Source: a virus
Taxonomy: Duplodnaviria; Heunggongvirae; Uroviricota; Caudoviricetes
Strand: one strand, 5' to 3'
IMG/VR virus record: IMGVR_UViG_3300023038_000160
Length of the DNA: 13,247 nucleotides
The position numbers and the translations under genes are program-made. The notes below the pieces were generated by a model that saw nothing but the letters and a program-made list of their open reading frames with translations, did not search any database and was not told the origin of the DNA. This document shows, piece after piece, positions 23 through 13,247 of the stretch; positions within the stretch are counted from its first letter, which is position 1; the number at the start of each line of letters is the position of its first letter.

Positions 23-98
23 GCCGATATAGCTCAGTTGGTAGAGCAGCGCATTCGTAATGCGAAGGTCGTAGGTTCGACTCCTATTATCGGCACCA
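23..98 (+). tRNA. thrW: tRNA-Thr, anticodon CGT (reads ACG), CCA end encoded
   Basis: 76-nt cloverleaf readable by eye: acceptor GCCGATA/TATCGGC, D-arm GCTC-AGTTGGTA-GAGC, anticodon arm GCGCA-TTCGTAA-TGCGA, T-arm GTAGG-TTCGACT-CCTAT, discriminator A plus CCA. From memory it matches the enterobacterial tRNA-Thr(CGU) gene, a known integration target. Confidence 0.9.
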
Positions 99-703
99 TC
101 AAGAAAATCAATAACTTAGCTTAACTTCTCTAAGAAATTGTATCTTCTGTTATCACTTACAAACGCCTATACGTTGTTATGGGCTTTGGTAGTGTAACAC
201 GTATGGGCGAGTAGTTCCCAGGCTCAACCTCGTAACAAGTTCCTTTGAAGCTGGAAGACGTGCCACCGTCTCTAAACCTTCTACCAAAACTCTTAGCAAG
301 ATGTTCCACACCTGGCGCGGTGTCCAATGATGCTACACGTCGTGAGACGTTGCAGAGGATAAACAGGCTAAATGATGGGAAGAGTTTTAAGTGCAATAGT
401 GGATTAAAGCCCACCTCTTCAAAACCTAACTTGATCGGGAAAGAATCAAGCTCTAGCACGGTTTCGTCCACCGGAGTACAACGGGTGCCTGATAAGAGAA
501 GAACTGCTAAGACTTCATAGCTTTTGTGAAAAAGCCCTTTTTAGTGGATACGCCTACGGCGCTTATTTTTTGGTATAACCATCAAAGGCGCTTTATGGCT
601 CCTATTGTCTTGAAAATGTATCTTTACTTGTATTGTGTTTTATGCGTAGTCTCCCTGTGTAGTATGTAACTTGTTAATTTTCATATGAATACAGAGGCAC
701 ACG

Positions 704-856
704 ATGAAAAACATTGCAGCTATCAAACGTAATAACCGCAAGATTCACGCTCGTAAGTTCCTGTCTACGCCAGAGGGAAAAGCCTGGCTAGAACGTAAAC
801 AGCGAGAGAACGAAGAAAGAAAACTCCTTAGTGAGTTGAAATGGCTTAAGGATTGA
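704..856 (+). CDS. Small basic hypothetical protein (50 aa; MKNIAAIKRNNRKIHARKFLSTPEGKAWLERKQRENEERKLLSELKWLKD)
   Basis: ATG with GAGG 9 nt upstream; below the 60-aa cutoff of the ORF track; ends 14 nt before a palindromic hairpin. Lys/Arg-rich, possibly nucleic-acid binding. Confidence 0.3.
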   Translation: MKNIAAIKRNNRKIHARKFLSTPEGKAWLERKQRENEERKLLSELKWLKD

Positions 857-869
857 ATCACCAGTAGGC

Positions 870-905
870 GCATAACACATCCAGCGATCAAAGATGTGTT
901 TATGC
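870..905. terminator. Palindromic hairpin between convergent small ORFs (GCATAACACATC ... GATGTGTTTATGC)
   Basis: 12-bp near-perfect inverted repeat with 11-nt loop; no strong T-tract, so it may be a bidirectional terminator or a protein-binding palindrome. The arm resembles the GCATTACACA motif family seen further downstream. Confidence 0.35.
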
Positions 906-922
906 ACCTGATAGTGAAATTA

Positions 923-1081
923 TTAAAGTCGTTTAGTTAACATCGCCATTGCTTGAGCAATAATTGCAACAGCGTCCATCTCTTCACTGGAAGCGATGCA
1001 AATGCGGTAACTAATAGCCACAACGAATACATCAATAACGAGAAAGTGAATAGTGTGAAGATGTTTTGAAAGTAAATGCAT
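923..1081 (-). CDS. Small hydrophobic hypothetical protein (52 aa; MHLLSKHLHTIHFLVIDVFVVAISYRICIASSEEMDAVAIIAQAMAMLTKRL), probably single-pass membrane
   Basis: Minus-strand ATG at 1081 preceded by GGAGG with 5-nt spacing; central ~20-aa hydrophobic stretch; not in the ORF track because under 60 aa. Preferred over the track ORF 937..1146, which is in another frame and lacks an RBS. Confidence 0.3.
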   Translation of the reverse strand: MHLLSKHLHTIHFLVIDVFVVAISYRICIASSEEMDAVAIIAQAMAMLTKRL

Positions 1082-1475
1082 AACTTCCTCCGGTTTGTAG
1101 ATAGGAGGATTAGAACACGCATTAAATGATGTTGCAACAATGGCAATTTACCCTAATAGTCTACTATTCACCTCAATCTACGTCAACCAATATTTGATGT
1201 AGATTTAATTTTCTTTTAAAAACAATATGTTGCTATTTGTTGGGTTTTGGAGTTAGGTTGTTTTTTGGACGTTTCCATCAAGTGTAAAGATACGTCTAGC
1301 CTTCATAGTGAGTTCAGTTACTGTCTTTTTCTCTGAAATCGGCGCAAACGTGATCATCGCTTGAGGTTGCTGCTCTTACTTCTCAAATTGTGATGGAGAA
1401 CGATAAAGGTTAGAGGGCACTTTTATTTTTTTAAGCAAGTGTATAGCATAAGAATAATCTAAAAAGGGAGGTTAT

Positions 1476-2027
1476 ATGCGCAGGTCTGCATTTGTGAGGA
1501 TGATGATTTTTACAACGTTGTTTGTAGGGGGAGCTTCTACCGCAGTTGCTAAAAACTGCAAAAAAGGAATACCTTGTGGTAACTCGTGTATAGCTGTTGG
1601 TAAGACGTGCCGGATTGGCTCTTATGCCCCTTCATCTTATAAAAATCATTCATACTCTTATCCTTCATCCTCTATTCGAAGCTCGCAATCAAATAATTCA
1701 CGAAAAACTGAAGGAGTGAAAACGACTCCTGCTGCCAAAAATTATCTTTGCCAATACTCTATTGCATCAATCGAAAACGGACGTTTAGGGGCATTACGTG
1801 TTCAGGGATACGCACAAGTAACTTTATATGCAGATAGCTTCAAGGCTAACAGATTAAATGGAACATATTTGATATCGCCAAAACTGTATGCTAACGGCAA
1901 GTTTATGATGGCAGATGATAAAAGCAAGGTTTATGCTTATGATTCTTGGCTATTAAATTTTGCAATAAGCGATCGTATCACAAGAACGACAGAACAATGG
2001 GATCGATGTAAGCTCAATCAAAAATAA
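1476..2027 (+). CDS. Secreted cysteine-rich hypothetical protein (183 aa) with predicted Sec signal peptide
   Basis: Strong RBS (AAAAAGGGAGG 6 nt before ATG); N-terminus MRRSAFVRMMIFTTLFVGGASTAVA is a basic n-region, hydrophobic core and AxA cleavage motif; mature part starts with C-x4-C-x3-C-x6-C and has two more Cys near the C-terminus; followed by an 8-bp stem hairpin. No family recognised by eye. Confidence 0.6.
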   Translation: MRRSAFVRMMIFTTLFVGGASTAVAKNCKKGIPCGNSCIAVGKTCRIGSYAPSSYKNHSYSYPSSSIRSSQSNNSRKTEGVKTTPAAKNYLCQYSIASIENGRLGALRVQGYAQVTLYADSFKANRLNGTYLISPKLYANGKFMMADDKSKVYAYDSWLLNFAISDRITRTTEQWDRCKLNQK

Positions 2028-2045
2028 CAGTTAGAGAAGCTCTTG

Positions 2046-2105
2046 TAGAGGCATTATTGAGTTATTGGTTTTAATATTTTTGTGCCTCTATGGGCTTTTT
2101 TTGCC
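2046..2105 (+). terminator. Putative intrinsic terminator after the secreted-protein gene
   Basis: Perfect 8-bp inverted repeat TAGAGGCA (2046-2053) / TGCCTCTA (2083-2090) followed by GGGCTTTTTTTGCCTTTTT; the loop is long and AT-rich, so efficiency is uncertain. Confidence 0.35.
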
Positions 2106-2787
2106 TTTTTGCAATGTAGGAGAGAGCACAGGAATCGTTAAAATTAATTATTGGGGTATTTAAGGTTATTTTCAGGTGATTTAAGGGTATTAAACTTGAT
2201 TTAATTGGTTAAAATATAAACAGATAGTTCTGTATCTTATTGATTTATAAGGTTATTTTTAAATAAAGGTAAATAAAAAATAAATAGCTATAAATACATC
2301 TTAATACCTATATCCCTTCCCTTATGGCTAGATTGCGAGAGGTGCTTAACGCGATTTTCAGCGCCCCCCGATCTGGAAAATCCAGAATCCCCAAATATCA
2401 GCAAGGAATTTCTTGCACAATCAACATCGTTTTTACCTATTAAATCATTACACAGAAAGCCTTTCTGTAATGCCTCTCACTAAACTTTCACTAAACACGA
2501 GAATGATCGGTTTTATGTCGGATCTGATGCTAGAAACAGCACCACGTCTCACAAGGGCTGTAAGCGATGAAACCAGTGTTTATGCGGGTGCGGGTCAAAA
2601 TATAGGCCAAAATCCATTTAACATAATAATCATAATATGCACTAAGGAACACATAGAACGCCTTGAATTGATGTATCATGGGAAAAGTGATGGATTTTTT
2701 ACGTAGGAGCACGAGAGGGCTTCTGTTTACTTTTGTGTGCTATGAAATATAATTAAAGGTTTTTTTGTTTTTATTGTGTGAAGTGGT

Positions 2788-3230
2788 GGATTACACAGGG
2801 GAATAGATTAAATGGTGTTCTGTTTATACAGGTTTATTTGTTAGATCAACAATTTGGCATTTCTAAACAGATGTTTGAACGTTGCCAAATGTCTTGACAA
2901 CACAAGAAAAGGGCTTGCTATGCCACGCATTACACGAAATAAGGCTGTAAAAACAAAATAAATTTTAAAATTTGCACAAACGAGAAAACTCGTTCAGAAA
3001 CAAGCAGAACAATTTTTAGCCAACAATTTCTGATGGTGTGCTGTAAGCCGCATTACACAAGGCTTTGCGAAAGTGATGTAAAAGTGAAGAAAGTAAGAAT
3101 TGCACTTTTAAGCTACTTTTTCATTGAATTTTTAGTATGGAATTACACAGGAATAAGTTAGGGATATTCTATGATTTACACAGGGAATATAGGGGGATTA
3201 TGGCACACACATAGAAAGGCATTACACAGG
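2788..3230 (+). repeat. Array of same-orientation motif copies, consensus G(C/A)ATTACACAGG(G)
   Basis: Copies at 2790-2799, 3142-3151, 3221-3230 (exact ATTACACAGG) and variants at 2929-2937, 3052-3062, 3174-3185; further variants outside this span at 4353-4364 and 4435-4444. Three copies extend to ...CAGGG(G)AAT. Irregular spacing, all on the + strand. Confidence 0.6.
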
Positions 3231-3276
3231 GTGAGTGCTATGTGACAAATGGATGTAACGGTAGGTCATAGTGAGC

Positions 3277-3416
3277 TACCCCCTATCAAGTCTAACAGGG
3301 GTTTATAAAGAATAATAAACCGATGATACCCCTATCAATATTGATACCCCTATTAACTTTGATATGACTACCCCTATCAAGTCTGATACCCCTACCCCTA
3401 TCAAAACTGATACCCG
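3277..3416 (+). repeat. Iteron cluster, core (G/C)(A/T)TACCCCTATCAA, candidate replication origin
   Basis: Direct repeats at 3277-3294, 3325-3338, 3343-3356, 3368-3380, 3385-3404 and a partial copy at 3409-3416, spaced 18-24 bp (about two helical turns), immediately followed by a very AT-rich tract (3417-3490) that could act as a DNA unwinding element. Confidence 0.65.
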
Positions 3417-3489
3417 ATAAGAATAAGTTAATAAGAATAATTAAATAATAATTAAATAATATTCTTTATATCTATATATATATGATTTT

Positions 3490-3660
3490 TTGCCTTCCGG
3501 CGTTAGCTTCACTCTCTGGCAAGCAGCCTTACTCCGCTACCTTTCGGGCTACGTTGGCTGGCCCCGTTCCGCTCACACCGAAAGCAAAGCGTTACTTTCT
3601 TCGTGTAACTATCGTTGGCGGTAACGCCCACGAAGAAATACTATTGCGCTATGCGCAGTA
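3490..3660. other. GC-rich structured patch inside the AT-rich noncoding region; candidate cos/pac-like packaging site, primosome site or structured ncRNA
   Basis: Sharp local rise in GC; nested hairpin TTCTTCGTG(3596-3604)...CACGAAGAA(3633-3641) with inner CGTT/AACG stem; motifs CCGTTCCGCTC and GTTACTTTCTTCGTGTAACT resemble, from memory, the terminase-binding R elements and adjacent sequence of lambda cosB. Not verified by alignment. Confidence 0.3.
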
Positions 3661-3722
3661 AGAGTAATCACCTAACCAATCATACTGATTGCTTATGTGT
3701 TAACTCTATCTCTCTACCTCTT

Positions 3723-3880
3723 AATTCCACTTCCTACATTCTGTAGTTGTGTAATTACTCGAAGAGAGAGCGGCTAAAGCTCAATTACACTCTGCTTTCC
3801 TCGTGTAATTTCACTAAGCCTCAATACAATTCCACTTCCTACATTTAATAACTCTCGTTATTCTCTGTAGTTGTGTAATT
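3723..3880 (+). repeat. Split direct repeat: AATTCCACTTCCTACATT x2 and CTGTAGTTGTGTAATT x2
   Basis: 18-mer at 3723-3740 and 3828-3845; 16-mer at 3741-3756 and 3865-3880; the two halves are adjacent in copy 1 and separated by a 19-bp insert in copy 2. GTGTAATT also occurs at 3809-3816 and, inverted, at 3782-3789. Confidence 0.55.
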
Positions 3881-4509
3881 GTTTTCGGTGGAAAAGCCAG
3901 AGGCGACACCGAAAGAGAATTCTGATCTTATTAATCTTATCTATCTTAGTTATCTTACTTACTTATCTTACTTTATCTACTTTATTATTAATAATAGCTT
4001 TATAAGCTCTATGTAGCTCTCTGACGCAAGAAACAGAGTTCAGGAAGGGAATCACCTTAGAAAAGTGTTCTTTGCGTCATAATGTGTTTTATGAAGGATT
4101 CAGAGGTGTTTCATAACAGGAATGTATAGAGGATACTTTAGGTAATTAAAAATAAGGGGTCTAAATGCTTCTCTAACAGCATTAAGCAGGGTAGAGAATG
4201 GAAACGCATTGCCTACACATATAAGCTCACTACAGAGCTTTACATAGCGTTTTATAAAGTGACTCTCTATCTTATATCTACAATCACCTTTTCATATACC
4301 TAACAAATACAAAATAAGCCCCTTAAATAAGCCTCTGGCGAGCTAAACAGCCATTACATAAGGGAATGTATTGCTTTTATCAAAATCTCGTTAGAACGCG
4401 TTTTAGAGCGTTTTAGACAATAATGAAGAATAGCACTACACAGGAGAGCACGAATTGTTAAGCAAAAATGTAAGTGCATGAAAAAGATCAGTTTTTTTGT
4501 GAAAAGGTA

Positions 4510-4538
4510 TTGACAAATGTTTCTTTATATGTAATAAT
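4510..4538 (+). promoter_or_regulatory. Sigma70-type promoter for the regulator/replication operon
   Basis: TTGACA (4510-4515), 17-bp spacer, AATAAT (4533-4538) with extended -10 TG at 4530-4531; a ~100-nt leader containing a short hairpin and T-run precedes the first gene. Confidence 0.5.
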
Positions 4539-4648
4539 AGGTATTAGAGGGACAGAAAACATTCTTCTCTAAATAATCAAAATCAATGCACTTTGAAGCC
4601 GTCAGGCTTGCAAGGTGTTTTTTCTTTTAACTGAATAAGGAGTTTTTT

Positions 4649-4837
4649 ATGAAATGGTTCACATCTGAGCACGTCGTTCAGGCATTTAAAAAAGGTGAGT
4701 TATCTCGCCACCAAGTAGTAATGAATCGTAATATGGCAAGGAGTCGAGGTTATCCAGAGCGAGCTGCTTGCTTCAATGAAGCACTCAAGATTATTGATGA
4801 ACTAAGAAAAAATGAAAAAGAATCTGAAACAGAGTAA
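4649..4837 (+). CDS. Small putative DNA-binding regulator (62 aa)
   Basis: Strong RBS AAGGAG 7 nt upstream; first gene after the promoter; basic helical segment LSRHQVVMNRNMARSRG. Family not recognised. Confidence 0.5.
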   Translation: MKWFTSEHVVQAFKKGELSRHQVVMNRNMARSRGYPERAACFNEALKIIDELRKNEKESETE

Positions 4838-4856
4838 AGAAGAGAAGGAGAAAACT

Positions 4857-5027
4857 ATGAGCGAAACTACAGAAAAGAAAAGACAACCACGCACTTGCTT
4901 TCATATTCCTGATGAAGTATTTCAGGTGTTATTTAAAGAAGCCAGAAGTAGACGTATCACTGTCACAGATTACATTCTTGATATGTTGAAAAGAGAGGCT
5001 GAAACACTCTCAAATAAAAGCAAGTGA
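4857..5027 (+). CDS. Ribbon-helix-helix (CopG/Arc-like) DNA-binding protein (56 aa)
   Basis: Start moved from the track's 4812 to the ATG at 4857, which has AAGGAG 7 nt upstream and avoids overlap with the previous gene; RTCFHIPDEVFQVLFKEARSRRITVTDYILDMLK fits a beta-strand followed by two helices. Confidence 0.55.
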   Translation: MSETTEKKRQPRTCFHIPDEVFQVLFKEARSRRITVTDYILDMLKREAETLSNKSK

Positions 5028-5080
5028 TTTTTATCACCATAGTAGCGCCGTAGAGCGTGATTACATCAAGGAGATTTTTA

Positions 5081-5749
5081 ATGATTAAACATACAAAACC
5101 TTTTTTAGGAATAGATTATGACTTACTAGCAATCACTTCCCTGGTGATTAACGGCAAAACAAAAGAAGTAAAACTACACCATAAGATCATTTATTCTTAT
5201 TTGTTAAGTTTATCTGGCACATACCAAAAGGTAACACCATCTTTGAAAGGTATTGGTGAGCGGTTAGGAGTAGGTACAGATCAGACGGTACGCCGTCATA
5301 TCAAAGATCTTGTTTCTTTTGGATGGTTGAAGATTGAGGAAAGGGCAGGTAGCACAAATGCTTATATTGTCCTTCCTTATGAACAAGAAGCCAAAACACA
5401 ACAAGAAGCTACCGTTAAAGCTGTTCCTGAACAGCTTCCCCCTACAGAAGATAATAAAGAGTCTTCTTTTGATGTTCTTGATGATTGGGATGCGCCTTTG
5501 CCGTGGGAGACGGAAGAAACACCTGTTTCATCAAGTGAAAAGGTAGCTAATGATAATGAGGAGGATGTGTTAGAGAATTTTGCCTCTCTTATCTGCCAGC
5601 AGAAAAACACCAGAACAGGAGGGGCATCCTTTATAGAATTTGCAACATCGTTAGCCTATAAGCACAGGTTAAAGCTACCAAATGGTATTGAGGCATATTT
5701 TTCTAAGAATTACCCAAATGTGTATGATGACTTTGATATTCCATTTTAA
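5081..5749 (+). CDS. Winged-helix protein with acidic C-terminal region; candidate iteron-binding replication initiator
   Basis: ATG at 5081 with AAGGAG 8 nt upstream (the track's 5057 start is a GTG without SD); wHTH-like segment SLKGIGERLGVGTDQTVRRHIKDLVSFGWLKIEE; D/E-rich region in the C-terminal half; located downstream of the iteron cluster. The Rep role is inferred from context. Confidence 0.45.
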   Translation: MIKHTKPFLGIDYDLLAITSLVINGKTKEVKLHHKIIYSYLLSLSGTYQKVTPSLKGIGERLGVGTDQTVRRHIKDLVSFGWLKIEERAGSTNAYIVLPYEQEAKTQQEATVKAVPEQLPPTEDNKESSFDVLDDWDAPLPWETEETPVSSSEKVANDNEEDVLENFASLICQQKNTRTGGASFIEFATSLAYKHRLKLPNGIEAYFSKNYPNVYDDFDIPF

Positions 5750-5760
5750 TAAGGAGGGTT

Positions 5761-6039
5761 ATGATTCAATATTTAGTAAAAAATCAAGTAGACAGAATTC
5801 AGTGTAATGACACAGGAAAACGCATCTACGAAACACTTGCTTACCTCTATAAAGGAAAGCCAACACCGCTAAAATATAGCGATGTGTTACACCGAGCAGG
5901 GTGCTCTGAAGATGGTTTAAAATTCTGGCTTAGACAGCTATCAAATTTCGGTGTTATAGAGATTAAAGAATTATCTTTCTCTACATTCAATCTCAAAAGA
6001 CTAGATAAAGAAATAGACTTCATCTATTCCACTCTCTAA
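5761..6039 (+). CDS. Small winged-helix-like protein (92 aa), function unknown
   Basis: Perfect RBS AAGGAGGG directly upstream; segment KYSDVLHRAGCSEDGLKFWLRQLSNFGVIEIKE resembles a wHTH recognition unit. Confidence 0.5.
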   Translation: MIQYLVKNQVDRIQCNDTGKRIYETLAYLYKGKPTPLKYSDVLHRAGCSEDGLKFWLRQLSNFGVIEIKELSFSTFNLKRLDKEIDFIYSTL

Positions 6040-6168
6040 AATCTCTCTATGTAATTAAAATATAAAAGGAAAACATTATTATGATAGTAGCTATGTATTG
6101 GTTATTGTTCTTTCTCACGTTAGAAACATATTTCGGGGTGTTTTCCTTTAAAAGAAAAGGAAAGGTAA

Positions 6169-6576
6169 ATGGCAAAAAGAAAAAACAACGTTGTTAAGAA
6201 AATAGGGGATTCAGCTTCTCTTCTAAGTAAACCTAAATCTATTCTAAGACGCAAAGACTTTAAAGAGCTAGTAACGCTCACCAAGCATAATAGCGCCCCT
6301 GGCGAATGGAAAACAGAGATCATAGAACATTCTCCCTCTGTGCCTTGTGGAGATGAATTTAACGCATTACAAGAAATCTTATCTTCAACACCTGGTGTAT
6401 TCTGGAAACCTAGAAAAAGAAAAGAGTATATTGTTGATAGCTCTGATTTACGCAAATACCAGATTTTAGGATTTGAAGACTATAACCACTACGTCGGTTA
6501 TCTCGCCACCAATGGCCTAAATAATTTAGTTCCTGAATTCCAAATTTTAGATAATGCTGATTATGGAGACTTTTAA
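6169..6576 (+). CDS. Hypothetical protein (135 aa), basic N-terminus
   Basis: RBS AAAGGAAAGG 4-5 nt before ATG; operon context; no family recognised. Confidence 0.5.
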   Translation: MAKRKNNVVKKIGDSASLLSKPKSILRRKDFKELVTLTKHNSAPGEWKTEIIEHSPSVPCGDEFNALQEILSSTPGVFWKPRKRKEYIVDSSDLRKYQILGFEDYNHYVGYLATNGLNNLVPEFQILDNADYGDF

Positions 6577-6577
6577 T

Positions 6578-6916
6578 ATGAACAAAAACACGTATGACAC
6601 AATTTATTCACTAATTAATTATTATGAGGATGATTACCTCCTGCCTTTAAACCGCGCTGAACTTGATGCATATAAAGAAAACACTCCAGCGGCACTAAAT
6701 GAGGCGTTTAAACACTGGGATTTAGCTGTGAATGCCTTTGAGCACCTCTTTAAGCGTGTAGAGATGCTCTGTAAGCGCGAAAACGCATATCTGACAGCGG
6801 ATCAGATATGGGAGTTATCAAACTGGATAGAAGATATTGAATCTGATGTTCGCTATGTAGGAGACGGACTTGTTGAACTAGCTCAACGCTTAGGCGCTAC
6901 TATCACAGAAGAATAA
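6578..6916 (+). CDS. Acidic helical hypothetical protein (112 aa from the ATG at 6578)
   Basis: GGAG 9 nt upstream of the ATG at 6578; the upstream ATGs at 6554 and 6563 lack an SD and overlap the previous gene. No family recognised. Confidence 0.45.
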   Translation: MNKNTYDTIYSLINYYEDDYLLPLNRAELDAYKENTPAALNEAFKHWDLAVNAFEHLFKRVEMLCKRENAYLTADQIWELSNWIEDIESDVRYVGDGLVELAQRLGATITEE

Positions 6917-6946
6917 AAAAAAGCAACAAAAAAGTTGTAAAATATC

Positions 6947-6975
6947 TTGACATTTCATATATTGTATGTTAGTAT
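6947..6975 (+). promoter_or_regulatory. Sigma70-type promoter with extended -10, driving a noncoding unit
   Basis: TTGACA (6947-6952), 17-bp spacer, TAGTAT (6970-6975), TG at 6967-6968. Confidence 0.5.
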
Positions 6976-6979
6976 AATT

Positions 6980-7187
6980 ATATGGGGTGATTATTTTTCC
7001 TTTATTGGTTCGATATTAAAAATTCTTCTTGTCGTTAAAGGGGAGTAAAATCTCCGCTCCCCGCTTCTCCTCCTTAAGTAAATACTGTGTCATTATTACC
7101 TCTTTTTTCCTTTGTTATGCATACATCTTGGAGTGTGCATAACATAGGGTAATTACAAAGGCGGCTTTAAATGCTGCCTTTTATTTT
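6980..7187 (+). ncRNA. Candidate ~200-nt structured noncoding RNA or regulatory leader between promoter and terminator
   Basis: No ORF beyond M-G-stop; alternative hairpins GGGGAG...CTCCCC (7040-7062); perfect 9-bp inverted repeat TGTTATGCA (7113-7121) / TGCATAACA (7136-7144); terminated by the hairpin at 7160-7178 plus T-tract. Confidence 0.3.
7157..7187 (+). terminator. Rho-independent terminator
   Basis: Stem GGCGGC (7160-7165) / GCTGCC (7173-7178) with one G-U pair, 7-nt loop, then TTTTATTTT (7179-7187). Confidence 0.55.
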
Positions 7188-7249
7188 GCCCGTTATGCAA
7201 CTTAAAAGTTGTATTTCTTACTTTAAACAAGGTAACAAGGTTTATATAA

Positions 7250-7462
7250 ATGTTGTTCTTAAATGATAAAGAGCAAATCATCAAGTATAAAGATGAAATG
7301 CTGCGAATTAATCCACAAATTACCGAAATGGTAGCTAAATACGCTGGGTGTTCTGTCGAAGAAGTAGAACGATGTGTTGAAAAATATTTTTCTCCTTCTT
7401 CTCCGTCTACACCTTCCCTTAATGAATTAATCAAATTAAAAGCTAAGGAGATTACTAAATGA
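7250..7462 (+). CDS. Hypothetical protein (70 aa), first gene of the head-like module
   Basis: ORF with weak SD; stop overlaps the next start (ATGA at 7459-7462), implying translational coupling; a 6-bp palindrome CAACTT-AA-AAGTTG lies just upstream. Confidence 0.4.
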   Translation: MLFLNDKEQIIKYKDEMLRINPQITEMVAKYAGCSVEEVERCVEKYFSPSSPSTPSLNELIKLKAKEITK

Positions 7463-7821
7463 TTATTGATTTAGACACTCTATTTCCAGTTCGAAAGACT
7501 TTCACAGATATTGTAAGTTATTGTACTGATCCGTTTGCCTCTGTAGAAAACAAGGTTTTTGCTTCTCTTCCTGCTGATGTTGAGTGCGGAGACTTGATCA
7601 CCAGCACGGGCGCTAAATATGAATCAGGAGATGATATCTATGTTGTTATGAGTGAATTTGTAACGGCTGGAGAAAACAAGCCTGTAGATGTGCTACGTGC
7701 TAATGCTGGTCTTGTCTGCATCAAAGCTGATGCGCTGAATGCTGTAAGTGAAGCAGCAAAAACAGCATTAATTAAAAAAGGCTTCCAGCTTGAAGGGTTC
7801 CATTCTGTTTTCACTTCTTAA
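7459..7821 (+). CDS. Hypothetical protein (120 aa) immediately upstream of the capsid gene; possible decoration or scaffold-type head protein
   Basis: AAGGAG 8 nt upstream; position is analogous to lambda D relative to E, but no convincing similarity to lambda gpD is seen by eye. Confidence 0.5.
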   Translation: MIIDLDTLFPVRKTFTDIVSYCTDPFASVENKVFASLPADVECGDLITSTGAKYESGDDIYVVMSEFVTAGENKPVDVLRANAGLVCIKADALNAVSEAAKTALIKKGFQLEGFHSVFTS

Positions 7822-7839
7822 TAAAAGGAATAATAATAA

Positions 7840-8868
7840 ATGATTCTAGGTAATGATTACGTTGATTTAGCTCCTCTGTTCTCTGCGCATAGCACTAGAA
7901 ATTATCTACTGTCTACCCTTGACTTCACTGATCCGGTGGGCGTTAGTTCTCATAAAGTAGCTGTTTCCCAGCTTGTCGAAAGCAACGAATCTCTGTTCAA
8001 CAAAGAAACCTCTCGTTTCTCTTCTGAGCATAACGTGACTAAGCGTGAACAAGGTAAAGAATGGCTGATCGAAATCCCGTATTTTCTTCGTGAAGATGTG
8101 ATTCGTCCTTCTGATGTTCAAGGCAAACGTAAACCTGGCACTGATTTTCAGGAAACACTCACTGATATTTATGCTGAGTATGTTGCTAAACATCACGTAG
8201 CGTATCAGCGTACAAAAGAGAGCGTATTGGCTGCATCTCTGTTTAGTGGTCGCACCTACACGCCTAAAACTGATGATGTTCTTATCGAGTGGGGCAAGCT
8301 GTTTAACGTATCAGCTATGAAAGCCACTGTGAACGCTTCCAGCACTGACACCACGAAGATTTTTAAAGAATTTGATCAGATTGCTACTGACATTATCGAG
8401 AAAGCACAAAGCCAGGCGGCTGCTGTAGAGCGTATTGTTGTTTTCTGTAAGCCGGAAGCCTTCTCTGCAATTCGATTCTCTGCGGGTATGGCAAACGCAT
8501 TCCAGTATGTAAGCCCACTGGAAGAGGGAAATGTTGTGTATCAGCGTCGTGACCTGCTACCAGGGGTGACAGCGTTCACTATTCCAGGAACTAACATTGA
8601 TGTTATTAAACTGGTAGATCCGCTACACCTTGCACATATGACTTCTGATGCGGTTGCGGTTCCGAAGTTTGCTAAAGGCTCTAATGTATATCAGAACATC
8701 TACGGGGCTGCTTCCAGCACCTTTGAACTGATTAATTCCGCTCCTGCTGAGGTGTACAGCTATAGCTATGAATCTTCTCGTGGTGATGCTGTTAACGTTG
8801 TTACAGAGAATAGCCAGATGGTTGTAAACCACGGCGTTGGCTTCTCCGTTCAAATCACTGTAAAATAA
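7840..8868 (+). CDS. Putative major capsid protein, lambda gpE-like (342 aa)
   Basis: RBS AAGGA; length matches lambda E (341 aa); by-eye matches to the recalled lambda E sequence: RIVVFCKPEAFSAIRF vs IIVFDPKGWALFRSF, LAASLFSGRTYT vs SAVLKGKYT, FELINSAP vs FTMIQSAP, and a C-terminal FSVQ vs FVSVQ; followed by a strong terminator. Confidence 0.6.
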   Translation: MILGNDYVDLAPLFSAHSTRNYLLSTLDFTDPVGVSSHKVAVSQLVESNESLFNKETSRFSSEHNVTKREQGKEWLIEIPYFLREDVIRPSDVQGKRKPGTDFQETLTDIYAEYVAKHHVAYQRTKESVLAASLFSGRTYTPKTDDVLIEWGKLFNVSAMKATVNASSTDTTKIFKEFDQIATDIIEKAQSQAAAVERIVVFCKPEAFSAIRFSAGMANAFQYVSPLEEGNVVYQRRDLLPGVTAFTIPGTNIDVIKLVDPLHLAHMTSDAVAVPKFAKGSNVYQNIYGAASSTFELINSAPAEVYSYSYESSRGDAVNVVTENSQMVVNHGVGFSVQITVK

Positions 8869-8886
8869 TATTTTAACGTGTAATAG

Positions 8887-8932
8887 AGGCGTGGCGTGAA
8901 TAACACGCTTCGCCTTTTTTTATTTATTTTTT
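8887..8932 (+). terminator. Strong Rho-independent terminator after the capsid gene
   Basis: AGGCG-tgg-CGTG aataa CACG-ctt-CGCCT stem-loop followed by TTTTTTTATTTATTTTTT. Confidence 0.7.
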
Positions 8933-8955
8933 AAATTTTGAGAGGTGATTAAAAT

Positions 8956-9159
8956 ATGGAAGTGATTCTGAAATCAAAAAATGGTGTACACGTACATTTA
9001 GATGCTAATGATTCTAGAGGCTTGTTAAATCTGAAATATCTATGTTCTCTCCTAGATGTTCCATATGAAGGAGTAAAAGCCCGTATGTTCAGACTAAACG
9101 AGAGTATTGATCAGGCTCTACACCATTTCTTAAGTAAAGAAGGTGGTAAAAATGATTAA
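8956..9159 (+). CDS. Hypothetical protein (67 aa)
   Basis: RBS GAGAGGTGA before ATG; no family recognised. Confidence 0.45.
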   Translation: MEVILKSKNGVHVHLDANDSRGLLNLKYLCSLLDVPYEGVKARMFRLNESIDQALHHFLSKEGGKND

Positions 9160-9174
9160 TAAGGGGGATTTTAA

Positions 9175-11001
9175 ATGTTAGAAATTAACACTTCTAAAAT
9201 TAAGAATACAGTAACATTTAGTGTAGATAAAGACAGCTTAAAAAAAACGAAAGACTCTATTACAGGCTTAAAGGAATTTGCAGAAAACATCAAGCCAGCT
9301 AAATTAAGGTTTGATAGTGTCACTAAAGGCTATAAGAAAGCACAAAGCGAAGTAGACAAGATTGCTCAACAGAAAGCTAAAACAGAAAAACAGAATCAAA
9401 GAGCACAAGCTGCCGCAGCAAGAGCACAGGCAAGGCAACAGGCACAAATAGCAGCACGTAAAGAGAAAGCAGAATTAAAACTTCTCGATGTGTCAAGCTC
9501 TATCAGTGCAATGCACCGTCTCTCTGTAGCGGAACAATACAAAGCTATTGCACAGGCTAGAGAGATAGCAAAACAATATGAGCAAGGCGCTATCTCGCTT
9601 GCACGTATGAATAGCCAGATGAAACGCTTACAACAACAACAACGTAAGATTAATGGCAACAGAAAAGCTCAATTTGCCCCCGTTAAGGGAGGATCAGGGA
9701 ATTCCGCCACTATGGGCGCTCTGTTATTTGGAGGCGCTACGGCTGCTGCTGGCGTGATGGCTGTTAGTAAAACCTCTGAATTTATGGCTAATAGCTTTGC
9801 GAATGCTGAAACACAAGGAGAATTAATCCAACGTGCAAGGCTTGGCGGTGTAGACGTTAACCAGATGTACAACATTACAGAATGGGCGTATAGAAACGGC
9901 GTTGACTCTATGATGGGTGATCAAGGGGCTAGAAAATACCTGGATCAGATGAAAGATGTTAGGGAACGTGCCGCAAAATCCTACAGTGAAGCTGAATTGG
10001 TGAAAGACAAGAAAGGAAAATCTGAATGGAAAGGCGGTGATAACGGTATTAATGAACTTCTAAACATCGGTGTTATTAACAAAAGCGACCTTAAAAAATT
10101 TGCTGATAATCCGGCTGGATTAATTTCTAAGGCTGTTAATGGAATGATGAAAAAAGGGTTTTCAGACTCCCAAATTGGACAACGTTTAGAAGACCTGGGC
10201 GATGATTTGATGCTTACATCAAAATATTGGCAACGTTCCGTTAAAGATGTACAAGAAAGTATTAATCAGCAAAAAGCCTCTGGAAAATGGCTAACAGAAA
10301 CACAGCAAGACTCTATTGTTAAATTCAGAGAACTAAACAGACAGCTTTCACAGCTTTCTGATGCAAGACAAGTAGCATTTGTAGACGGCTTTATGAAATC
10401 TCTCGATCCAAAAGTAACGGAAGAGTTTATGAAAAACCTTTCTAATCTCACTCCGTATTTTACGAAGCTTGGAGAAGCTACAGGAAGTCTCTTTGAAGCC
10501 ATTATGAAGATTGTAAACTGGTTTAATCGTAATGATGATAAGACAGATGCTATTCAGAAAAATATGGGAGATGCACCGCCATTAAGCAATGAAGGAATGA
10601 AACAGAATCTTTCTAACCTCGTTCCTGACCAATATAAAGGCGCTGGCACTGCAACAACTACACCTGATAATACTCATTCCATCTTTAACACAATTAAGGG
10701 ATGGCTTTTCGATGATAATTCTTCTGTGTCAGATGTAAAAATGTCAGTCAGCGAAGCACCGATAACCAATCTCAAACAGGGTGCTTTAAATAATCTTGCA
10801 ATGACAACTCCGGCTTATAATTTATCTCCTGTGTTTAATCTGAATCCTACATTTGAAGTGGTAACAGAGGTTCCTCTTACTATTAATTCTGACACATCAA
10901 GATTAAGCGATTATGTGGATTTTACAGCGAGAGCAAGTCGGGATAGCTTCTTGAAATCATTAACATTAACCAGCTTATCAGGACAATCTAACGGCGGGTA
11001 A
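9175..11001 (+). CDS. Large coiled-coil protein with Gly/Ala-rich hydrophobic segment (608 aa); candidate scaffold, tape-measure-like or ejection-type virion protein
   Basis: RBS AAGGGGGA; N-terminal ~170 aa rich in Q/A/K/R (AQQKAKTEKQNQRAQAAAARAQARQQAQIAARKEKAELK), then GGSGNSATMGALLFGGATAAAGVMAV (~9697-9775), then an S/T/N-rich C-terminal part. Function inferred from composition only. Confidence 0.55.
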   Translation: MLEINTSKIKNTVTFSVDKDSLKKTKDSITGLKEFAENIKPAKLRFDSVTKGYKKAQSEVDKIAQQKAKTEKQNQRAQAAAARAQARQQAQIAARKEKAELKLLDVSSSISAMHRLSVAEQYKAIAQAREIAKQYEQGAISLARMNSQMKRLQQQQRKINGNRKAQFAPVKGGSGNSATMGALLFGGATAAAGVMAVSKTSEFMANSFANAETQGELIQRARLGGVDVNQMYNITEWAYRNGVDSMMGDQGARKYLDQMKDVRERAAKSYSEAELVKDKKGKSEWKGGDNGINELLNIGVINKSDLKKFADNPAGLISKAVNGMMKKGFSDSQIGQRLEDLGDDLMLTSKYWQRSVKDVQESINQQKASGKWLTETQQDSIVKFRELNRQLSQLSDARQVAFVDGFMKSLDPKVTEEFMKNLSNLTPYFTKLGEATGSLFEAIMKIVNWFNRNDDKTDAIQKNMGDAPPLSNEGMKQNLSNLVPDQYKGAGTATTTPDNTHSIFNTIKGWLFDDNSSVSDVKMSVSEAPITNLKQGALNNLAMTTPAYNLSPVFNLNPTFEVVTEVPLTINSDTSRLSDYVDFTARASRDSFLKSLTLTSLSGQSNGG

Positions 11002-11035
11002 TTCCCGCCATAACATTACAAGGAAAATTATTATT

Positions 11036-11749
11036 ATGGCGACCGCCGGGATTTTAACCATACGTGCAGCAAATACTCCAGAACAACACGTTCAGGCTGT
11101 TTACAAAGCAGAACAAGATATAAACTCTACAAAAAACGAAAATAGCAAAGCTAATAAAACAAAAGGAGAAAATGGGTTTGCTATTGTTACCAGTGGCTTG
11201 GCATCTTCTGGCAATGACGTTTATGAAAATTATATGGCACTGGCCTTTGACAGTGTTGACGATGTGAACGTGAGACGTTCGGCAGATGTTACAAGCTACC
11301 CCGTAGAAAATGGTGCTACTGTGTCTGATCACGTTCAAATTAAAAACAATAAGTTTTCTCTTAAAGGAAGGATCACTGAAACACCGATTAAAAGCGATCC
11401 TGGCTTGTTAAAGAGTGCAGGGGTGAACGGGAACAGAAGATCATTAGCTATCGACTACCTGAATCAGATTATGGACAGTAGACAGCCTTTTCTTCTTGTT
11501 ACAGAAAATAAAACTTTTGAGAACGTTGTTTTAACAGGAATCGAATACACAGAAGAGGCAAGCGAATCCCTGGTATTTGATCTTAGCTTTGAGCAAATAA
11601 GATTAGTTTCTTATGGCACTGTGAACACTGTAGCTATCAAAACACAGCCATCTAAGAACATCGGGGCTAATATGAAAAAACGTGTTAACACTGAAAAATC
11701 AAGTAGTGAAGGTGAAGACACTATTACTCCTGCCTTTAAACAGGAATAG
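11036..11749 (+). CDS. Hypothetical protein (237 aa), possible virion-associated protein
   Basis: RBS AAGGAAAA; same operon as the 608-aa gene; no family recognised. Confidence 0.5.
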   Translation: MATAGILTIRAANTPEQHVQAVYKAEQDINSTKNENSKANKTKGENGFAIVTSGLASSGNDVYENYMALAFDSVDDVNVRRSADVTSYPVENGATVSDHVQIKNNKFSLKGRITETPIKSDPGLLKSAGVNGNRRSLAIDYLNQIMDSRQPFLLVTENKTFENVVLTGIEYTEEASESLVFDLSFEQIRLVSYGTVNTVAIKTQPSKNIGANMKKRVNTEKSSSEGEDTITPAFKQE

Positions 11750-11790
11750 CTGTAAATGCCTCTAAAACGCTCTGTAACGATGTAATTATA

Positions 11791-11823
11791 AAAGAGGCTA
11801 CCAATCTATGTTGAAGCCTCTTT
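11791..11823. terminator. Bidirectional terminator hairpin between convergent genes
   Basis: Perfect 9-bp stem AAAGAGGCT / AGCCTCTTT with additional CAA/TTG pairing in the loop; AT-rich flanks on both sides; sits between the 237-aa gene (+) and the integrase (-). Confidence 0.5.
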
Positions 11824-11830
11824 ATTGCGT

Positions 11831-13165
11831 CTATGGCGTTGTTTTACGCCTTAAATTTGATTTTTTATTGATTGATAAGCCTTTCTCTATTTCAGGGTAG
11901 CGTAGAAGCTCAATATATTTTTTAAGCTCTACTGGAGAAGCTGCATTCTTGCTATATGTGCGGAATGTCTCTGTATTGCCGCGTGTATGGCCCAGGAGAA
12001 GGGCGATCCTGTCTTCTGGAATTTGATTTCGATCAAGAAGCTGTGCTACTCCGTGTCTCAGAGAATGAAACACCTTCCTTTCTGTTCCCTTTTCCCCTAA
12101 AGCCTTTCGTTTAGCTCTTGTAAATCTCTGCGTGTGCCACGTAGAGCGTTTACCATCAGCACGCTCTGTAATGCTGGCGTGATAGAACAAAAAGCCATTA
12201 TGAGGCTTTTCACGCAGCGACAACACCAACGGAGTGATAAGGCTATGTACAGGCACAACACGTGCCGCAGCTTTCGTTTTTCCCTGTGTGATTTCAAAAC
12301 ACAGCACACCTTCGATCTCTTTCACATCGTCTATTGTGAGACTTGCTATCTCATTGATCCGCATACCTGTATATAAACCGATAAGACACAAAGCTATCAT
12401 TTCTTTGTTTTCTGCTGAATTACCGGAAAATACTTGCAACACCTGCAATAGCTCTTTGTTAGAAAATGCCTCGTAGCTCTCTCTACTTTGTGCCACATCA
12501 AGCCTATGCCCTCGCCAGGGGGAGAGCGCCCTTTCTGGCGCATCGTGGTAACGTGATGAAGCTAACTCCCATAGCTGGGCCATTGGGCTGATATAATTTG
12601 CAATTGATTGTTGTGAAAGGGTTTTTTGCATGTGTTCAATCCAGCCTGTAACAGTGGTGCGGCTTACATCTTGCAATGCAATATCAGGCTTTTTACGGTA
12701 GGAGAGAAACATCTCTACCGCTTTTCTTGCCTTAGCTAAAGTGGCTGGCTTCTTCTTCGTGCTGTTAATAGTCAGGTAGATTTCAAGAATTTTAAGCAAT
12801 GATGGACACGAAGACGCTGTATCTTGCATTCTGGTAGCTGTTTTGGCGTATTTAGCCTTACTGCGTAACAGTTCCAGCGTGTTCTCTATTGTGCTGTTTA
12901 CAGGAGCGACACTCTCGCGTAAGCAATGGTATTCATCTGCAATCTGATCACGCTTTCTACGTGCAACACGAAGATTACTTGTGTGCAGACTCCTGACAAA
13001 CGTCCTTTTTCCTTCAAAAAAGGGCTGCATATACACAGGCAGCGTGATCCTTAAATAGTAGTTACCGTAAGAATCACAGATTATGTATTGATTGGGCTTG
13101 TATCTCATAAACTCCCCGGCTAAAGTGTCGGAGCGTTTGTAATGTGAAAATTGATTGTAACGCAT
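11831..13165 (-). CDS. Tyrosine recombinase / phage-type integrase (444 aa) with N-terminal arm-binding-like domain
   Basis: Catalytic signature visible in the translation: TGMRINEI (Arg), HSLRHG (His-x-x-Arg), LLGHTRGNTETFRTYS (His and catalytic Tyr). An alternative start at 13108 (MRYKPNQ..., GGGGAG 3 nt upstream) is possible. Codon composition looks more GC-rich than the rest of the island. Confidence 0.85.
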   Translation of the reverse strand: MRYNQFSHYKRSDTLAGEFMRYKPNQYIICDSYGNYYLRITLPVYMQPFFEGKRTFVRSLHTSNLRVARRKRDQIADEYHCLRESVAPVNSTIENTLELLRSKAKYAKTATRMQDTASSCPSLLKILEIYLTINSTKKKPATLAKARKAVEMFLSYRKKPDIALQDVSRTTVTGWIEHMQKTLSQQSIANYISPMAQLWELASSRYHDAPERALSPWRGHRLDVAQSRESYEAFSNKELLQVLQVFSGNSAENKEMIALCLIGLYTGMRINEIASLTIDDVKEIEGVLCFEITQGKTKAAARVVPVHSLITPLVLSLREKPHNGFLFYHASITERADGKRSTWHTQRFTRAKRKALGEKGTERKVFHSLRHGVAQLLDRNQIPEDRIALLLGHTRGNTETFRTYSKNAASPVELKKYIELLRYPEIEKGLSINKKSNLRRKTTP

Positions 13166-13247
13166 AGAAAATGATAATTTTTTCTATAAGATTCAATCAA
13201 TTAGTAATGGTCGTAGGTGATGGCATTAACACGAGATTAATCGAGTG

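Follow-up and report, generated by a model that had tools for sequence, protein, structure and literature searches.

Most satellites known to exploit virulent phages, such as PLE and PICMI, come from Vibrio. The nuclease Odn of phage ICP1 copies the DNA-binding domain of the PLE RepA protein and cuts the PLE origin (PMC8263062), and a 'Capsid protein E' has been reported for PISP TG93, a Vibrio satellite plasmid (PMC13230959). Here we analyzed a 13,247-nucleotide stretch of DNA (IMG/VR virus record IMGVR_UViG_3300023038_000160, hereafter the window), which an initial annotation made from the sequence had described as a compact, helper-dependent satellite with its own replicon and capsid gene. 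This core view is supported by a mimic of a phage terminal repeat, by Odn-like nucleases encoded by phages, by an architecture that recurs across genera and by purifying selection. We consider it likely that the window represents, in full, one member of a so far undescribed family of integrative satellites of Enterobacterales that parasitizes virulent Stephanstirmvirinae, the helper of the Escherichia coli variant probably being a phi92-like Justusliebigvirus. With confidence only slightly better than even, we further propose that this family is the first in E. coli and related bacteria to exploit virulent phages as a satellite, and that its architecture is new: the island would provide its own capsid shell, tape measure and tube initiator, and phi92- or phAPEC8-like helpers would supply the portal, protease, terminase and remaining tail. 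The island would copy the terminal-repeat packaging site of these helpers and would be engaged in an arms race with phage nucleases in which two captured Rep domains are stacked so as to target several replicon types at once.

A sensitive blastn search with the 2.6-kb non-coding region of the window revealed that positions 2327-2372 are identical to phi92 positions 318-363 at 44 of 46 nucleotides, including 40 out of 40 between 2333 and 2372. Because the annotated left direct terminal repeat of phi92 extends from 1 to 343 (343 bp) and ends between nucleotides 343 and 344, the match straddles the inner boundary of the repeat. This 46-mer is conserved to 95% or more in 46 phage records and to about 80% in Klebsiella and Citrobacter relatives, and it is present in every E. 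coli island variant fetched. The island shares a second box of this region, CCCCAAATATC, with Klebsiella and Citrobacter phages. Two additional elements of the phage terminus are found in the island (Table 1): a palindrome, also present in islands of several genera (L003, L011, L015, L033 and L035), which in phage muut and Klebsiella phage KP2025 is located approximately 180 nucleotides away from the boundary site, and a 22-mer, the phage copy of which is in non-coding DNA beside the right terminal repeat. The boundary match, the palindrome and the 22-mer are collinear and equally oriented between island and phage, in otherwise unrelated surrounding DNA. Together, these three elements look like a mimic of the packaging region of the helper.

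The only other near-identical stretch, window positions 5022-5449, encodes the DNA-binding domain of the island Rep protein and is 96% identical at the nucleotide level to phage muut. Gene 154 of muut codes for a protein of 332 amino acid residues made of three parts, two HTH_36 domains and a C-terminal MUG113 domain. The first HTH_36 domain is 98% identical to residues 9-131 of the window Rep (123 residues), and the second is 91-93% identical to the Rep of two other island variants (L022 and L028). The C terminus matches Pfam MUG113, which we take to belong to the GIY-YIG clan, with a score of 22.5 bits (cut-off of 22.3), as well as the endonuclease family phrog_681 (2e-18), and tblastn indicates that it resembles annotated homing or GIY-YIG endonuclease genes of T5-like and other phages. 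A homologue from Phapecoctavirus Mt1B1_P17 is nearly identical to muut gene 154 from residue 112 on (C-terminal 220 residues; 76% identity overall), and its first domain has been swapped for one that is 99% identical to the Rep of variants L030 and L031. The nuclease gene is accessory since only a handful of phage records carry it. Its product in muut has the same organization as Odn, a satellite-Rep-like DNA-binding domain fused to a nuclease domain of the GIY-YIG superfamily. Odn carries a single Rep-like domain with 42% identity, whereas the muut and Mt1B1_P17 nucleases carry two, with 91-99% identity. By analogy with Odn, these phage nucleases are seemingly aimed at the replication origin of the island. 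No iteron array was found by blastn in any phage record, and about 58 kb of the muut genome was also checked directly.

The structural genes of the island provide further links with the same phages. The closest phage homologues of its tape measure and tube initiator belong to the Stephanstirmvirinae (phi92-like and phAPEC8-like phages), virulent myoviruses of 145-150 kb, the genomes of Justusliebigvirus (phi92-like) being approximately 146 kb long. Compared with the 659-residue tape measure of Justusliebigvirus, the island protein is 54% identical over its first 66 residues and 32% identical over residues 213-450; matches were obtained in 134 phage records, those among the matches listed being E. 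coli and Klebsiella phages of Stephanstirmvirinae size. The Dit-like protein is 60% identical to the Justusliebigvirus 'tail tube initiator', and the two genes share a 79-nucleotide stretch with 91% nucleotide identity. The capsid gene, suspected from the outset to be lambda E-like, was confirmed by profile search as a full-length Phage_cap_E member (Table 1). Its product aligns collinearly with the Justusliebigvirus capsid at an identity of only 22%, and tblastn against 50,697 phage records returned as phage relatives only virulent myoviruses of Pseudomonas, Limnohabitans and Curvibacter (22-26%), the nearest being Pseudomonas phages at about 25% identity. ORF 7459 and ORF 8956 (open reading frames are designated by their start positions) have no BLASTP similarity to the phage genes at matching positions. 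Because the capsid is only 22-26% identical to phage counterparts while the tail genes are closer, we read the shell genes as an old separate lineage and the tail genes as nearer to those of the candidate helper. The lambdoid affiliation given to the head module in the initial annotation had to be abandoned, as the nearest relatives among phages are virulent myoviruses, namely the Stephanstirmvirinae and related groups; a lambdoid relationship was rejected on the capsid results. Judging from these sequence comparisons, the helper of the E. coli variant is probably a virulent phi92-like Justusliebigvirus, not a lambdoid phage.

Twenty ORFs were scanned against Pfam and PHROGs, and 10 of these 20 also against NCBIfam. 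No match to a terminase, portal, protease, connector, sheath or tube protein was obtained among them, and only three ORFs of the window exceed 250 amino acid residues, those coding for the capsid, the tape-measure-like protein and the integrase. The absence of terminase, portal and protease genes noted initially was upheld; the accompanying claim that no tail set is recognizable was not, given the tape-measure and Dit-like genes (Table 1). Separately, several 146-kb records labelled 'Campylobacter phage' (MG065639.1, MG065645.1, MG065656.1, MG065689.1 and similar) do not differ from E. coli phages in their matches to the Justusliebigvirus terminus site and tape measure, and are probably mislabelled or derived from contaminated preparations.

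The window corresponds to a complete 13.1-kb island at E. coli thrW because, in E. coli strain 1500, direct att repeats GTTCGACTCCTATTATCGGCACCATCAA and GTTTTACTCCTATTATCGGCACCATTAA spaced by 13,130 bp (L003 8075-8102 and 21205-21232) enclose the island and no phage genes are found in the flanks beyond them. These flanks are formed by proA-thrW and, at the opposite end, by a truncated lysR/paoD. The predicted linkage to a tRNA-Thr gene and the predicted integrase are both confirmed (Table 1), and so is the opinion that the element is not a full prophage: no complete prophage contiguous with the module exists in strain 1500. By megablast, no fewer than 80 out of 5426 complete E. coli genomes harbor the island (about 95% identity with at least 80% of the island covered). 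Its G+C content is approximately 38% throughout, well below that of the E. coli chromosome.

Homologues of the island capsid form a chromosomal clade with identities ranging from 98% down to 38% and hosts that include E. coli, Citrobacter, Enterobacter, Klebsiella, Cronobacter, Dryocola, Sodalis and Serratia. A compact layout is common to loci from Klebsiella, Serratia, Buttiauxella, Kluyvera, Scandinavium and Citrobacter, and consists of small ORFs, a variable Rep gene, ORF 6169, the decoration and capsid genes, a small ORF, the tape-measure gene, sometimes a Dit-like gene, and the integrase gene. The structural genes and ORF 6169 constitute the core of the family, whereas Rep and Int are the parts that are swapped. 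Comparison of the window with strain 1500 yielded ratios of nonsynonymous to synonymous substitution rates (dN/dS) of 0-0.2 in all nine genes measured, the small ORFs spanning this whole range (other values in Table 1). Purifying selection acts on the core genes, and their conservation extends across the Enterobacterales. A tRNA-linked integrase next to a patchy phage-like gene set could also be what deletions have left at thrW of a temperate, Stephanstirmvirinae-like prophage, now decaying and devoid of present function, and IMG/VR places several copies inside predicted viral regions. We give this explanation very little credence. The same compact gene order and size are found from one genus to another, the att repeats have been retained, no ORF is disrupted, the dN/dS values count against decay, and the replicon modules are swapped as units with matching iterons. 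Furthermore, Stephanstirmvirinae are virulent, and no temperate relative with the island capsid clade was found among the 50,697 phage records. With no flanking phage genes, intact ORFs and a recurring compact layout, the element does not qualify as a prophage, either intact or defective; it corresponds to the general definition of a satellite, in that it is devoid of a complete virion and packaging gene set and does not reside within a full prophage.

As anticipated by the initial annotation, the island carries an iteron origin and a gene for a Rep-like protein. The iterons are followed by an AT-rich stretch. The iteron TACCCCTATCAA is present in four copies versus 0.04 expected, plus a variant copy at 3277-3289. 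The Rep ORF opens at a GTG codon (5057), the ATG at 5081 being the likely start, and in Pfam searches its product matched HTH_36 alone, with no match to RepA_N. Across island variants, the iteron sequence shifts with the type of Rep DNA-binding domain: ACCCCTATCA accompanies the window Rep type, CCCCCACAGAATTCTGTTA is found in L024 and L027, and ACATCAAAATGATGTA in Klebsiella. This co-variation is as expected if Rep reads the iterons. A Rep/iteron replicon that is often swapped, together with an integrase, would also befit an integrative plasmid-like or mobilizable element in which the phage-like genes are cargo acquired by recombination and unrelated to transfer. We regard this as very improbable, given that no relaxase, oriT or conjugation gene was detected in scans of the window, and that the phage-like genes are the conserved core of the element, variation being found in Rep and Int.

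Considering the window as a satellite of Stephanstirmvirinae, we propose the following cycle, in which we infer every step after integration. The island resides at thrW, where its tyrosine integrase has inserted it, as shown by the att repeats, the integrase gene and the core-gene flanks. Infection by the helper would trigger excision and replication, Rep binding the iterons at 3277-3404 beside an AT-rich unwinding region, a step supported by the co-variation of iterons with Rep type. The island would then build its own shell, made of the capsid and gpD-like decoration proteins, around the portal, protease/scaffold and terminase of the helper. This shell is probably small and sized for about 13 kb, because such a length suits a T=4-sized head like those of P4 and SaPIs. 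The helper terminase would recognize the boundary copy and the neighboring terminus elements and package island DNA, as suggested by their sequence identity with the phage. Finally, the tape measure and tube initiator of the island, which would act at the center of the baseplate, would enter helper tail assembly and yield either satellite-specific tails or poisoned helper tails. In response, some helpers may cut island origins with chimeric nucleases bearing island Rep DNA-binding domains, as ICP1 Odn does on PLE.

Several observations weigh against this interpretation. No small terminase was identified, nor any excisionase in the window, and neither a second terminal-repeat boundary nor an inverted CCCCNAAATATC box was found in the island. 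The boundary mimic is absent from the non-E. coli islands examined, which contain the palindrome or shorter matches only. The fit of the island capsid with the portal and scaffold of the helper is uncertain because it is only 22% identical to the helper capsid, and the sequences are compatible with transfer of the Rep domains in either direction between island and phage. The attP junction pattern returned no match in IMG/VR and JGI metagenomes, where no circular or packaged form was found either. All 20 of 20 metagenomic contigs bearing the terminus mimic display the integrated arrangement, and contigs of 12-15 kb are integrated copies without terminal overlap. The lack of a circular or packaged form in these datasets would agree with a non-mobilized anti-phage defence island that amplifies upon infection by phi92-like phages, poisons assembly with a flood of decoy capsid, tape-measure and tube-initiator proteins and is itself not packaged. 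Such a role is also consistent with the homology of the structural genes to helper parts needed in few copies or at nucleation steps, and with the apparent counter-measures carried by phages. This reading, which we deem unlikely although less so than the two alternatives discussed above, leaves unexplained the exact copy of the terminal-repeat boundary with its collinear terminus elements, and the full capsid-plus-decoration pair maintained under purifying selection in many genera. The spread over genera, the integrase and the att sites argue for horizontal mobility. Moreover, a defence function is partly a subset of the satellite lifestyle that we favor, as both coexist in PLE.

Table 1. Features of the 13,247-nucleotide window, with short integrase-like ORFs of other islands
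Feature	Position	Strand	Evidence and remarks
tRNA-Thr (CGT), thrW	23-98	+	Integration target; ARAGORN; Rfam tRNA, 71.8 bits; 3' of proA in E. coli strain 1500
attL core ACTCCTATTATCGGCACCAT	80-99	.	Corresponds to tRNA 3' end; attR copy just past the last base of the window
Variable cargo segment	849-2094	.	Absent from many metagenomic and genomic island variants; acts as accessory cargo slot
Terminal-repeat-boundary mimic; candidate terminase recognition/cleavage site	2327-2399	-	Sequence identity to phi92
ATTACACAGG(G) repeat cluster	2447-3230	+	12 matches in the window, mostly here, versus 0.7 expected
Palindrome TTTGGCA-N-TAAACA-N-TGTTT-N-TGCCAAA	2853-2889	.	Also in phage terminal-repeat region
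Replication origin	3277-3480	+	Iterons 3277-3404, then AT-rich stretch 3417-3480
22-mer AATTAAAAATAAGGGGTCTAAA	4144-4165	+	21/22 identical to phi92 147334-147355 and to muut
Promoter-like site, near-consensus sigma-70 (TTGACA-17-AATAAT with TG)	4510-4538	+	11/12 positions; best of the window; upstream of early operon
Two small ORFs, candidate regulators	4649-4837 and 4812/4857-5027	+	
Rep, HTH_36 winged-helix initiator	5081-5749	+	Pfam HTH_36, 1.2e-7; PHROG replication-initiator families, ~1e-10
Three ORFs, function unknown	5761-6039, 6169-6576, 6554-6916	+	
Structural operon leader: promoter-like site 6947-6975 (TTGACA-17-TAGTAT with TG), then terminator-like hairpin 7157-7181	6947-7181	+	Consensus matching only
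Small ORF, function unknown, first of structural operon	7250-7462	+	44-48% identity in 7/12 related loci compared; dN/dS 0.2
gpD-like head decoration (cement) protein, putative	7459-7821	+	Fold and synteny only; directly upstream of capsid gene; dN/dS 0.12
Major capsid protein, Phage_cap_E	7840-8868	+	Pfam, 2.4e-13, full length; dN/dS 0.11
Small ORF at the position of the phage 75-residue gene upstream of tape measure	8956-9159	+	Synteny only; dN/dS 0.05
Tail tape-measure homologue, 608 residues	9175-11001	+	phrog_16051, 1.2e-54; in all family members; dN/dS 0.08
Dit-like tail-tube initiator/baseplate protein	11036-11749	+	Pfam Dit_like, 3.4e-29; in some family members only; dN/dS 0.12
Tyrosine integrase (DUF6538, SAM-like and catalytic domains)	11831-13165	-	Pfam Phage_integrase, 1.6e-17; PHROG; at attR end
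Short Phage_integrase-family ORFs of other islands	L006 2968-3585, L008 3138-3689, L042 264-845, L044 3816-4394	-	

Promoter-like sequences precede both the early and the structural operon (Table 1), the total count of such sites in the window being no higher than in shuffled sequences. The −35 and −10 elements at 6947-6975 resemble a promoter-like sequence located upstream of the phage portal gene, and a leader of approximately 270 nucleotides containing the hairpin (within 6947-7249) precedes the first structural gene. This layout could indicate control of the capsid/tail operon by antitermination, and the early and structural promoter-like sites, together with the hairpin, hint at a two-stage control. 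The first gene of the structural operon, ORF 7250-7462, is shared by loci among which there are no E. coli variants, Klebsiella or Serratia. In the early region, what had been called an excision/regulation module comes down to a pair of small ORFs without an identifiable excisionase. ORF 4649-4837 is kept in many island variants, and ORF 4812/4857-5027 is weakly Arc/RHH-like (phrog_582, 0.004) and 43% identical to muut_153, the product of the gene directly upstream of the muut nuclease gene. About nine plus-strand copies of the ATTACACAGG(G) motif, often followed by AATA, lie between the terminus mimic and the iterons, and another is found at 4435-4444. These repeats are confined to E. coli island variants and are absent from the fetched phage DNA; they may be a site for a regulator or a partition-like protein. 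Rfam returned only the tRNA when searched for structured RNA in the 2.6-kb non-coding region, and a candidate RNA structure at 3480-3670 was rejected as unconvincing (folding z = −1.9).

ORF 6169, present in every genus examined, belongs to a family with hundreds of Klebsiella homologues. Its AlphaFold model was too poor for a fold search (predicted local distance difference test score of 53), and profile searches against PDB sequences with the ORF 6169 and ORF 7459 families gave no matches. A 28-residue C-terminal motif, RKYQILGFEDYNHYVGYLATNGLNN (residues 95-123; window 6451-6537), is common to ORF 6169 and muut_46, an 82-residue protein of phage muut (L004 364-612), with an hhalign probability of 59%, and may mimic a helper protein. 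In the Serratia island L008, a 26-nucleotide stretch (5169-5194) is 96% identical to the terminus flank of KP2025 (L039 2637-2662), and may be a further phage element borrowed by a distant member of the family.

Next to attL, positions 157-520 have a G+C content of 45% and contain ORFs that overlap on both strands (157-471 on the minus strand and 245-520 on the plus strand). This region is kept in some island variants and has no family match; a gene, a pseudogene or a region of integrase arm sites are candidates. The islands from outside E. coli carry a short ORF of the Phage_integrase family, coding for 183-205 residues, near the end opposite the full-length integrase gene (Table 1), and its uniform size points to a functional gene more than to a remnant. 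No counterpart of this ORF was detectable in the window, and the possibility that ORF 157-471 is its vestige was rejected for lack of similarity. Within the cargo segment, ORF 1476-2027 codes for a Cys-rich protein (phrog_2578, function unknown) whose N terminus resembles a signal peptide by eye, and which is probably secreted. Klebsiella islands have a gene for a Dam methylase in the equivalent arm. PADLOC gave no credible match to known defence genes in the island, cargo segment included. An E. coli-type copy of the island is also borne by a 9.4-kb contig (L014, JAEWTL010000083.1) binned into a metagenome-assembled genome labelled 'Bacillota bacterium'; its attL-adjacent ORFs are 96-99% identical and its capsid 72% identical to those of the window, and the assignment to Bacillota is probably a binning error.

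If our interpretation is true, a counterpart of the Vibrio satellites in E. coli, Klebsiella and Enterobacter would open satellite biology in the best genetic model. It would also bear on phage therapy, as phi92-like and phAPEC8-like phages are therapy candidates and the island occurs in 1.5% or more of complete E. coli genomes. Likewise, the phage nucleases would represent a second independent case of origin-directed nucleases as counter-defence, with a modular, two-headed specificity that can be read from sequence. A full-text literature search, with much of the subscription literature outside its reach, found no description of the family, which looks like an undescribed kind of phage satellite and a new family.

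The view that the island is not P4-like, a PICI or a PLE withstood comparison, as marker features of each are lacking. Like P4-like satellites, the island is in the 11-13 kb range and combines a tRNA-linked tyrosine integrase, its own replicon and a variable cargo or defence hotspot. P4 also carries a P2-type cos site, a copy of the packaging site of its helper. However, Sid, Psu, Delta and the alpha primase-helicase found no match in our Pfam, PHROGs and NCBIfam scans. P4 uses the capsid protein of its helper P2, a temperate cos phage, whereas the candidate helper of the island is virulent and has direct terminal repeats. The island differs from classical PICIs and SaPIs by its own capsid gene and by the absence of matches to a primase, a small terminase or AlpA. 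It resembles cf-PICIs and cf-PISPs such as PISP TG93 in encoding its own capsid protein instead of merely remodelling that of the helper. Nevertheless, TG93 is a plasmid that lacks an integrase and encodes a protease and a small terminase, and cf-PICIs possess a full head and packaging set (portal, protease, connectors and small terminase) with a PF05065-type capsid, whereas the head genes of the island are limited to capsid and decoration. Besides, cf-PICIs lack tail genes and use helper tails, unlike the island with its tape-measure and Dit-like genes. The PICMIs of Vibrionaceae, described as minimalist satellites, are likewise small integrative islands exploiting virulent phages (PMC10803314). 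They encode no capsid-remodelling or structural genes, whereas the conserved core of the island is structural. Encoding both a capsid and a tape measure is part of no described satellite strategy, and raises the question of why a parasite needs its own tail ruler.

By analogy, the island works most like PLE. Each is a compact island in the chromosome that combines an integrase with a Rep/iteron replicon, has replicon modules that vary between island variants, and is linked to a large virulent myovirus, not to a temperate phage. In both cases some helpers bear a chimeric nuclease of the GIY-YIG superfamily, the N terminus of which copies the DNA-binding domain of the island Rep (PMC8263062). 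What sets the island apart from PLE is its gene families, the PLE proteins, TcaP included, having been compared by description. The PLE integrase is a large serine recombinase, whereas that of the island is a tyrosine recombinase. Both initiators follow an iteron logic but belong to different families, PLE RepA containing a RepA_N domain and the island Rep an HTH_36 domain. Lastly, PLE takes its coat protein from ICP1 and changes the shell size by means of the TcaP scaffold, whereas the island encodes a capsid, a decoration protein, a tape measure and a tube initiator of its own.

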